Source: Camelus dromedarius
Taxonomy: Eukaryota
Length of the DNA stretch: 64,000 nt
Assembly: GCF_036321535.1 (NCBI RefSeq)
Contig: NC_087436.1
Span: 52,144,001 to 52,208,000, forward strand
Reading direction: 5' to 3'
The notes beneath the pieces were generated by a model, which saw nothing but the letters and a program-made list of their open reading frames with translations, had not been told where the DNA came from and did not search any database. Both the position numbers and the translations under genes were made by a program. Position 1 is the first letter of the stretch. Each line of letters starts with the position of its first letter. Positions 11,240 to 14,400 of this stretch are shown here, piece after piece.

Positions 11240-11413
<174 letters not shown>

Positions 11414-11527
11414 TGAAATCCTGAGATGTTCTTAATAAAATGGCATAGGAAGGAGAGGAAATGTGGCCTCTTTTATTTGCAAATACTCAGAAAGAGAAAC
11501 ACCTCGGCCTAACCAGTAAAACTCACG

Positions 11528-12055
11528 AGCTGCACCTTGAGAGAAGGGATTTGAAAGTGTGTTGCTGTGTGCGCTGGTAACAACATGCAGTGAGTGAATT
11601 AAGGGGAAACGAAAGAAATGAGGACTGTTAGGATAATTTATATGATCTCATTAGGATAATACAACTCTTTAAAAATAACAGATACATAATTTTGACTGGG
11701 TTCAAGCTAAAATGGCTACCTTTTTTTCTTACCCCTTTGTATTATAATTCAAAAGTTGCTATTTTATTTCACAAACTACCTGTCAAATTGAAAGGTTAGG
11801 ATAACCATGCTTTCCTCACATTTCTGATATTAATAATAATCATTATACGGAAGTGATTAATGGCTCCAATATTTTGAAAGGCTTGTACAATAACAAAAAA
11901 ACCCAGTTTATTATAAACATAGTGGCCATTGGTATGTTACAAGGCAAGACAAACTTATATTTAAAAAATTGTCTGTTAGTGTGCCCCAGTTTTTCAGAAG
12001 AATTGGCCTTTTCTTTCTTTCCTTCCTTCCTTCCTTTCTTCTCCATTTATTTTGT
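11528..12055 (+). repeat. Long inverted repeat, left arm (528 bp)
   Basis: Reverse complement of 13234-13761; manual alignment gives 12 substitutions and two 2-bp indels. Confidence 0.98.
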
Positions 12056-12811
12056 TTTTGTATTTTGACCCAAAGCCTCAGCAAAAATTTTGGGGAAAGG
12101 TCTGCATCCACTGAACTTGAGCTTTCAGTGCAGGAGGCATGATGGTGATAAGCTGGATCATTACTCATGCAGCTTCTCACAAATCACAGTGAATGGGCAT
12201 CGTAATAAACATAGGAGTTTGTGTGTGTTCAAGAAAAAATGATGCCCTGTGAGGGATTTCAGAGAAGAGCTGTACATCTTTCTGAACTATTCATAATAAT
12301 ACATACATTAATGTTTATATGTATTTATTATTTTACTATTTATGCTATTTTATATTAATATTTATATTTATAGCATGTTAATACTGTATATATTTATTTT
12401 CCTACAATATTTATGGCTTTTTCCCTTAAATATCCAAAAATGATTAAACCAAGAAGTTATGAATTGCCAGCAAAGAAATCTTCCCTTTCAATACCAAAAT
12501 AAGTCACAAGTAAAGGTTCCCAGTACCACTCCATGTCTCCACTTTCTTGAATCGGCCAGACCACAGCATGGAAACCAAAGCAATGTGAATCCTGACAACT
12601 TCCCTTAGAACATGCATCATTTCAGTTATTTCCATTAATTATTCAGATTTTGAATATCTGTTATAAAAGAAAATATTAATGTATTTGTATACATAATTCA
12701 CTTTTGATAATTAAACTAAAGCTTTGGATTAATGTTGGCTCCACTTAAGTTTTACTCTTTATCATGTATCTTCAATGCTAGAAAAATATTGATTTTAAAA
12801 AGTAATTCTTA

Positions 12812-12953
12812 GAGGGGAGGGTATAGCTCAAGTGGTAGGGTGCTTGCTTAGCATCCACAAGGTCCTGGGTTCAATTCCCAGTACCTCCTCTTAAAAAAAT
12901 AAAAAAATAAATAAATAAGTAAACCTAATTACCTCCCCCTACAAAAAAAAAAG
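12812..12953 (+). mobile_element. tRNA-derived SINE, camelid vic-1-like
   Basis: GGGGAGGGTATAGCTCAAGTGGTAG (A box) ... GGGTTCAATTCCC (B box), A-rich linker, ACCTAATTACCTCCCCC, A tail; near-perfect TSD aaagtaattctt 12799-12810 / aaattaattctt 12954-12965. Confidence 0.9.
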
Positions 12954-13233
12954 AAATTAATTCTTGAAAGAAATAGTGGACAAGCTTCTTTTCCCATTCA
13001 CAATAGAACCCAACCTAATTGTTTAAAATATTCAATACAAATAGCATGCAACTTAGTAAAAAGTCATGCAGTACTAATTTTCTGTGTATAATGCTTTTAT
13101 ACAACCCTCTTGTAATGCATTTACTCAACTAAATTTCTTATTAAATTTACCTAAACCCCATTTGTAAAACCTTTTTGAAAATGAAATGCAATGATCTATG
13201 TATCAACACATTCATTTTTGAAAATCAGTATTC

Positions 13234-13761
13234 ACAAAATAAAGGGAGAATAAAGGAAGGAAGGAAGGAAAGAAAGAAAAGGCCAATTCTTCTGAAAAAC
13301 TAGGGCATACTAACAGACAACTTTTTAAATATAAGTTTGTCTTGCCTTGTAACATACCAATGGCCACTATGTTTATAATAAACTGGGTTTTTTTTTGTTA
13401 TTGTACAAGCCTTTCAAAATATTAGAGCCATTAATCACTTTTGTATAATGATTATTACTAATATCAGAAATGTGAGGAAAGCATGGTTATCCTAACCTTT
13501 CAATTTGACAGGTAGTTTGTGAAATAAAATAGCAACTTTTGAATTATAATACAAAGGGGTAAGAAAAAAGGGTAGCCATTTTAGCTTGAACCCAGTCAAA
13601 ATTATGTATCTGTTATTTTTAAAGAGTTGTATTATCCTAATGAGATCATATAAATTATCCTAACAGTCCTCATTTCTTTCGTTTCCCCTTAATTCACTCA
13701 TTGCATGTTGTTACCAGCGCACACAGCAACACACTTTTAAATCCCCTCTCAAGGTGCAGCT
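13234..13761 (-). repeat. Long inverted repeat, right arm (528 bp)
   Basis: Reverse complement of 11528-12055; ORF 11843..12046(-) reads the same purine tract seen on + at ~13250. Confidence 0.98.
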
Positions 13762-14148
13762 GATAAAGTAAAATATATTAATTCATCAATCAATAATTTT
13801 TGTTAAACACAAGACCACATGCCTATCACTAAGCTAGGTTCTCTAGGGGACTAAACAAATTAAAAAAGGGATCCAGCATTCACTTGGTCCCTAGGAACGT
13901 AAGTTTGTAATCTGGTCTAGATCTAGGAGCAAAACTGTACAAATAAATACAAATTCAAAAGTAACCATTTTCTCCTTCATAGATTTATAGTATATTCACA
14001 TCCCCATTTTTTATTTATCCATTGTCTGTTGACCTATACTTGGTCAATATTACCATTAGATTTTGTAGATATGAGCTAATAATTTTAAAAACATAAAGTC
14101 TGCATAGAAACACAAAGACTCTTAACTTTTATAATCTGAATTTGATAG

Positions 14149-14400
<252 letters not shown>

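Follow-up and report, generated by a model that had tools for sequence, protein, structure and literature searches.

In a 64,000-nt window of the dromedary (Camelus dromedarius) reference assembly GCF_036321535.1 (contig NC_087436.1, positions 52,144,001 to 52,208,000, forward strand), an intron of a calcineurin gene carries two 528-nt arms that are nearly perfect reverse complements of each other and are separated by a spacer of 1178 bp. Positions given below are those of this window, and the structural description refers throughout to the reference assembly sequence. The intron opens with GT at 11406 and closes with AG at 14301-14302. The translation of 14305-14376, in the exon downstream of the repeat, was identical at 24 of 24 positions to residues 361-384 of Protein phosphatase 3 catalytic subunit alpha (PDB 9b9g, E = 1.2e-21), while the match of this exon to the beta isoform was much weaker (E = 2.4e-4). 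Given this difference, we assign the host gene by similarity as the PPP3CA orthologue (calcineurin A alpha); the comparison of alpha with its paralogue is based on one exon, the downstream one. The upstream exon, recognized by its borders and open frame, is presumably another coding exon of calcineurin A. The left arm begins 122 nt into the intron, and the whole repeat unit covers 2234 of the 2897 intron nucleotides. A preliminary description of the sequence had placed a repeat of these dimensions inside a PPP3CA intron, 122 nt after the donor site; the dimensions match our reading of the sequence and the gene assignment is borne out by the downstream exon.

Gapped local alignment of 11528-12055 with the reverse complement of 13234-13761 gave 514 matches, 12 mismatches and two 2-bp gaps, i.e. 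an identity of 514/526 between the arms. The repeat finder had at first reported two adjoining inverted pairs, 11541-11901/13390-13750 (361 nt, 98%) and 11895-12055/13234-13394 (161 nt, 97%), which the gapped alignment fused into a single pair of 528 nt. Similarity ends abruptly on both sides; none was seen in the ~78 nt of extra flank included beyond either end. The substitutions are at 11553, 11590, 11721, 11833, 11849, 11850, 11867, 11968, 11981, 11987, 12038 and 12045, with the arm-to-arm indels near 11544 and 11895; from these positions follow perfect runs at 11591-11720 (130 bp) and 11722-11832 (111 bp). The preliminary description had counted 12 substitutions and two 2-bp indels (~97% identity), perfect runs of 130 and 111 bp and a spacer of 1178 bp, and the alignment reproduces these figures to the base. 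The GC content of an arm is 33% (175/528). When the arm was compared by BLAST with the whole 2.3-Gb assembly, the second arm was recovered at 97% with E = 3e-253, a value that excludes a chance match. There is no N in the window, and this is the sole inverted repeat in it with arms of at least 100 nt lying no more than 10 kb apart. Coordinates of the features are collected in the table.

Table. Features of the inverted repeat, its spacer and the flanking exons (window coordinates).
Feature	Position	Strand	Remarks
Upstream coding exon	11280..11405	+	AG acceptor before 11280, open frame, GT after 11405; read by eye; exon 9 in the numbering of the preliminary description
Intron	11406..14302	+	2897 nt; GT...AG borders; downstream exon identified
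AGTAAAA, 7-nt direct repeat, left copy	11515..11521	+	6 nt outside the left arm
Left arm	11528..12055	+	528 nt; repeat search and alignment; no third genomic copy
(TTCC)n-type polypyrimidine microsatellite	12010..12041	+	Inner end of the left arm; Tandem Repeats Finder
(TATTTTG)x3 array	12048..12067	+	Spans the left-arm/spacer junction 12055/12056; score 33, weak
Spacer	12056..13233	.	1178 nt; unique except for one short interspersed element (SINE)
tRNA-derived SINE with A-rich, (TAAA)n-containing tail	12811..12957	+	Rfam tRNA match at 12817-12889, 34 bits
Right arm	13234..13761	-	528 nt, reverse complement of the left arm; alignment and genome BLAST
(AAGG)n mirror tract	13253..13278		In the right arm; Tandem Repeats Finder
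AGTAAAA, right copy	13767..13773	+	5 nt outside the right arm
Downstream coding exon	14303..14377	+	PPP3CA residue match; exon 10 in the numbering of the preliminary description

We then considered whether the arms belong to any known class of repeat. A search of the whole genome with the arm produced three candidates, all three of which were scored: the two arms themselves and one microsatellite-type match of 46-48 nt. Thus, no third copy of the arm was found in the 2.3-Gb assembly, where the SINE in the spacer gave 2610 first-look candidates. The preliminary description had regarded the arms as a local inverted duplication free of any recognizable transposon, a view that a match to a high-copy repeat would have overturned; the two-copy status of the arms is in line with that view. 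At the outer ends there is no flush target-site duplication (TSD) for k = 2-15. The intron has no stop-to-stop open reading frame (ORF) longer than 90 aa (eight are of at least 60 aa), and none of seven ORFs had a Pfam match at E <= 0.1. With permissive thresholds Rfam returned only the tRNA-like match in the spacer plus two sub-threshold matches at the same place; no tRNA or 7SL match fell within the arms. An inverted SINE pair was ruled out, the arms being devoid of SINE, tRNA or 7SL matches and of any high-copy family. Ends of a DNA transposon and a known RNA gene were ruled out as well. Since the arms are unique in the genome and have no flush TSD, no ORF above 90 aa and no Pfam or Rfam match, we conclude from these searches that they are neither a SINE pair, nor recognizable transposon ends, nor a known RNA gene. 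Also, what characterizes a foldback or terminal inverted repeat (TIR) transposon or a miniature inverted-repeat transposable element (MITE), namely a flush TSD, multiple copies and an ORF of transposase size, was not observed here.

The spacer at its full length matched only itself. The other 42 matches all fell within its positions 727-918, the part responsible for the 2610 candidates genome-wide, and the 40 of them that were scored had 78-91% identity. This part is the SINE, flanked by its own 8-nt direct repeat TAATTCTT (12803-12810 and 12958-12965, read from the sequence). Compared with a consensus of 20 copies, the nearest of the 40 scored, the core of the element (12814-12891) differs at 1 of 78 positions and the whole element at 16 of 157, nearly all of the differences being in the A-rich tail. 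The element thus appears to have inserted recently and to belong to an abundant family. As the spacer is otherwise unique, and the common SINE in it has its own flanking repeat, the spacer looks like ordinary host intron DNA rather than cargo.

Two low-complexity tracts were also seen in the intron. A block of the spacer at 12288-12372 is AT-rich, with degenerate TATTTATATTAA / TTTATA repeats (spacer GC is ~27%), and a perfect (TA)9 microsatellite is located at 14186-14203, ~100 nt before the AG that precedes the downstream exon.

The differences between the arms carry information on their origin. Ten of the 12 substitutions are transitions, including a CpG-to-CpA change at 11849, and there are only two indels, one of them in an A-run. 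With a transition-rich spectrum (10:2), a CpG site and few indels, the differences are of an evolutionary rather than an erroneous kind: they read as a germ-line mutation spectrum and not as read or assembly error. The Kimura two-parameter distance between the arms is 0.0233, which would date the duplication to roughly 5-12 million years ago if neutral substitution in mammals is taken to proceed at 2.2 to 1.0e-9 per site per year. The GC-to-AT direction of change between the arms (8 vs 4) was not significant, and the longest perfect run, 130 bp, is unremarkable for this number of differences (permutation P = 0.26).

Folding predictions were made for the complete intron. RNAfold gave a minimum free energy of -1235.7 kcal/mol with 520 arm-arm pairs (~98% of 528), compared with -603.5 kcal/mol when the right arm was shuffled (one shuffle). 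In the predicted stem the 12 substitutions become six G:U pairs and six mismatches. Formation of the stem would place 11527 next to 13762 and leave ~663 nt of the flanks unpaired, and both splice sites lie outside it (122 nt and 541 nt away). The earlier suggestion that the transcript could form a duplex of ~530 bp is therefore upheld by the predicted fold. We looked for traces of selection on such a stem, which would be expected to favour G:U over A:C among transitions in the transcribed strand. Of the ten transitions, six are wobble-compatible (G:U) in the sense RNA and four in the antisense RNA, so no bias of the substitutions towards RNA pairing was seen among them, and the stem bears no mark of selection. 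The duplication is probably neutral.

The human double-stranded RNA (dsRNA) catalogue offers a scale for the predicted duplex. In that source (PMC11838218), 2,018 of 5,134,754 predicted dsRNAs exceed 300 bp with over 96% of their nucleotides paired; 88% of these long paired dsRNAs are intergenic and most derive from inverted long interspersed elements (LINEs). The fold predicted for the camel intron exceeds both of these thresholds, as used with dsRNAscan in the same source. Thus, the predicted duplex falls into a rare, human-defined class, and it is unusual within that class as being non-repetitive and genic.

Evidence on the sequence was also available from outside the assembly. Fourteen DNA runs (11 samples from seven studies, one organism) contain 0.90-0.91 of 291 31-mers sampled from 11300-14400. 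The sequence content of the intron is not private to the assembly; its arrangement is not proven thereby. The RNA runs (X15-X20) contain 0.05-0.48 of the sampled words, shares that do not bear on expression or intron retention.

We interpret the repeat as genuine and specific to the lineage: 528 bp of unique intronic DNA were duplicated locally, in inverted orientation, by a single break-repair or replication event, and the product is not mobile; the probability we attach to this reading is about 0.68. That one event was sufficient is indicated by the sharp ends, the uniqueness of the sequence and the uniform divergence between the copies. To discuss its course we write the layout as X-L-S-R-Y (left flank, left arm, spacer, right arm and right flank). 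Four histories give this layout. In history A the left arm and the spacer are ancestral and the right arm arose as an inverted copy that was placed between S and Y; A' is its mirror, with the left arm as the copy. In histories B and B' a micro-inversion turns the spacer together with one arm, and a staggered break of 528 nt is filled in. The junction between left arm and spacer is crossed by the (TATTTTG)x3 array, of which the right arm holds only the first part; this hints, weakly, that the left arm adjoined the beginning of the spacer before the event, and if L and S were contiguous ancestrally, A or B' is allowed. Skews of the arms (GC/TA) are +0.017/+0.054 and -0.006/-0.048.

As to the mechanism, we prefer a replicative template switch or fold-back synthesis, a choice that must be called tentative, with somewhat less than even odds. 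The left arm and the spacer would be the original intron. The nascent strand would leave its template where the present spacer ends, copy the left arm on the opposite strand from its inner end, beside the (TTCC)n/(TATTTTG)n tract, to its outer end, and then rejoin, lengthening an intron of about 2369 nt by 528 nt; thereafter the copies would diverge through ordinary germ-line substitutions. Two reports describe reverse-complement copies as products of template switching (10.1101/2021.04.15.439925 and PMC7954356). The (TTCC)n tract ends 14 nt from the inner breakpoint, and together with its (AAGG)n mirror it is a possible site of fork stalling or of H-DNA at the rearrangement junction. Its position suggests that the inner breakpoint lies within stalling-prone, non-B-prone DNA. 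The analysis establishes the anatomy, the uniqueness of the arms, the spectrum of substitutions and the predicted fold; mechanism, polarity (which arm is the copy) and age are what we infer. At the RNA level, the arms would pair with each other within the pre-mRNA over ~520 bp, with 1.2 kb looped out between them. Such a long duplex is expected to be heavily edited by ADARs in the nucleus; the edited duplex would then be discarded with the intron, the structure being tolerated and selectively neutral.

A number of observations count against this reading. No outgroup was found: a 40-nt exact word of the arm had no match in metagenome contigs, nor did a degenerate pattern of the downstream exon. 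Inspection by eye showed no microhomology at the four junctions under any model. The skews of the spacer (GC -0.112, TA -0.014; GC and combined skew at the 7th-10th percentile of 315 sliding windows along the + strand of the 64-kb window) lean towards an inverted spacer, within the local noise (SD ~0.10). Random placement of the differences would rarely leave a 242-bp stretch with just one of them, as is seen here (permutation P = 0.024); if this stretch reflects gene conversion, of which it is a hint, the event would be older than the divergence implies. A uniform ~9% of the sampled words is absent from every run, and the private and junction 31-mers of one arm make up 9.9% (304/3071); the k-mer shares would thus fit a single-arm genome as well as a true repeat with popped bubbles. 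The direct repeat AGTAAAA stands 5-6 nt outside both arm ends. The preliminary description had stated that there is no TSD; this holds for flush duplications and is slightly weakened by the offset pair. A 7-mer common to the two flanks at the same spacing occurred in 1.8% of 20,000 random pairs, and AGTAAAA was spotted post hoc; the pair is probably due to chance rather than a footprint of the event. Finally, selective neutrality and editing of the duplex are both things that we infer.

Among the alternatives, a micro-inversion with one staggered break is the most probable. It supposes that ~1.7 kb (the spacer and one arm) was flipped and a 528-nt overhang filled in, so that the spacer would now be reversed relative to the ancestor. 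Such events, by isochromatid or chromatid models, are the textbook origin of duplications at inversion ends, and a case of nearly equal dimensions exists in Drosophila subobscura, where inverted duplications of 534/540 bp lying 1,374 bp apart are interpreted as break-repair footprints; they stand beside a 2,026-bp micro-inversion and are ascribed to staggered breaks or repair synthesis (PMC7584159). Blunt junctions with no microhomology would suit end joining, and the GC skew of the spacer (-0.11) and its combined skew have the direction expected of a flipped spacer. Still, the skew signal is inside the local noise, the array across the left junction is compatible with a single variant, that with a resident right arm, and a stagger of 528 nt requires long unwinding or sister-chromatid exchange. 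We regard this origin as unlikely.

A further question is whether the lineage makes use of the duplex. PPP3CA is highly expressed in neurons. A selected RNA element could regulate PPP3CA through splicing kinetics, through nuclear retention by hyper-editing, with an effect on calcineurin A dosage, or through somatic small RNAs of the hairpin RNA (hpRNA) type; at the DNA level, recombination between the arms, with a spacer orientation that differs among individuals, could make the repeat an invertible switch. Duplexes of more than 300 bp with more than 96% pairing are rare, this one is non-repetitive and located in a neuronally expressed gene, and the 242-bp near-identical core could reflect homogenization. 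However, the substitutions show no compensatory or wobble bias, the genome has no trans target for small interfering RNAs (siRNAs), the splice sites are not sequestered, and the young age of the duplication would suffice for the high identity. We give a selected or otherwise used element a small chance only.

Assembly error has to be weighed too: the animal would have one arm, and the second would come from long-read mis-assembly. The uniform deficit of ~9% in the 14 runs, close to the 9.9% contributed by the private and junction words of one arm, is what one might expect in that case. The same deficit is expected if bubbles between two true arms were popped, and we suspect that such arm-to-arm bubble-popping at contig building is its cause. 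Artefactual copies, which derive from the same molecule or from the other haplotype, should be near-identical and usually have no spacer, while here the copies are 2.3% divergent and lie 1178 bp apart. Given this divergence, its transition-rich composition (10:2) with just two indels, the 1.2-kb spacer, the lack of N in the window and of an alternative contig of the region in the assembly, an artefact is improbable. Very improbable is the insertion of a pre-formed 2.2-kb foldback or long-TIR unit into an ancestral intron of ~645 nt with AGTAAAA as 7-nt TSD: the overall shape resembles a foldback element and a shared 7-mer is infrequent in random flank pairs, but the two copies, noticed post hoc, are offset by 6 and 5 nt from the arm ends with non-complementary bases between, no donor or family is seen (neither the arm nor the non-SINE part of the spacer has another copy in 2.3 Gb), and there is neither a transposase-size ORF nor a Pfam match.

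A local inverted duplication raises the issue of DNA stability. The preliminary description had found the persistence of the repeat in an essential gene notable, as long, closely spaced inverted repeats are unstable. This was overstated: by the Lobachev criteria, as quoted in PMC5414712, strongly recombinogenic repeats have a spacer shorter than 20 bp and an arm/spacer ratio above 16, while the camel values are 1178 bp and 0.45. A small liability remains, because in yeast, repeats of 2 kb that flank a 1-kb spacer can still lead the repair of a nearby double-strand break astray, chiefly through inter-molecular annealing (PMC6103520). Thus, the risk of instability is small but not nil, and the spacer could be inverted by recombination between the arms.

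If the repeat is real in the animal, it is a clean example of a near-perfect, non-repetitive intramolecular dsRNA of more than 500 bp in an expressed mammalian gene, and a natural substrate for studies of nuclear ADAR hyper-editing, of disposal of intron dsRNA and of tolerance to self dsRNA. Should the lineage after all make use of the duplex, it would be a test case for a mammal that tolerates abundant self dsRNA of MDA5 grade. As DNA, the repeat, if real, records a mammalian germ-line rearrangement by template switch or staggered break that can be dated. Among the papers covered by our literature search, none connects PPP3CA with an inverted repeat in an intron. The repeat is no new kind of system, and nothing we found suggests an altered function of calcineurin.

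Several known systems are comparable. Species-specific intronic inverted repeats of human are reportedly the subject of a paper by Wang and Leung in FEBS J (2009). The long inverted repeats (LIRs) of Wang and Leung and of Lirex are defined by arms longer than 30 bp, identity above 85% and GC above 20%; the camel values are 528 nt, 514/526 and 33%, the spacer is below 2 kb, the location is intronic, and the occurrence seems restricted to the lineage. The whole unit (2234 bp) exceeds the Lirex default window of 2000 bp, the camel arms are much longer than the examples of 32-53 bp listed in the accessible part of Table 1 in PMC5414712, the source of these definitions, and they are not built from transposons.

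Intronic inverted SINE pairs (IRAlus, known as ADAR substrates; PMC2533698) likewise produce intramolecular dsRNA from inverted copies ~1-2 kb apart, while the camel arms are non-SINE, longer and far more similar to each other than typical pairs. The human long dsRNAs described as 'putative MDA5 substrates' are alike in pairing (520 pairs over 528 nt in the predicted camel fold); our case is intronic and would be spliced out, like all but one of 103 exon-overlapping human cases reported in PMC11838218. The human dsRNAs are mostly intergenic (88%) pairs of inverted LINEs, whereas the camel case is unique sequence in an expressed gene and is known from a predicted fold.

Loci of the hpRNA type, which give rise to hairpin-derived endogenous siRNAs, occur in Drosophila and in mouse oocytes and have homologous trans targets. 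They share with the camel repeat a long near-perfect inverted duplication within one RNA, and differ from it in that the camel genome, with no third copy of the arm, offers no trans target.

Template-switch mutations of the hairpin-forming kind reportedly involve tens of bases. They resemble our case in that one-step copying of a reverse complement yields an RNA stem (10.1101/2021.04.15.439925, PMC10710096 and PMC5453318). The camel event is larger, 528 nt with a 1.2-kb loop, on the scale of kilobase rearrangements of the type ascribed to fork stalling and template switching (FoSTeS) or microhomology-mediated break-induced replication (MMBIR; PMC2621351).

A close likeness in dimensions and layout is seen with the duplicates of the O7 region of D. 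subobscura, as described in PMC7584159; these, too, are unique DNA, free of transposons, with breaks near non-B-prone motifs, whereas the camel repeat is mammalian, intronic and has no large inversion attached. The feature, though rare, belongs to a known kind: it is an intronic long inverted repeat that arose recently and locally, without a transposon, and in all likelihood is neutral.

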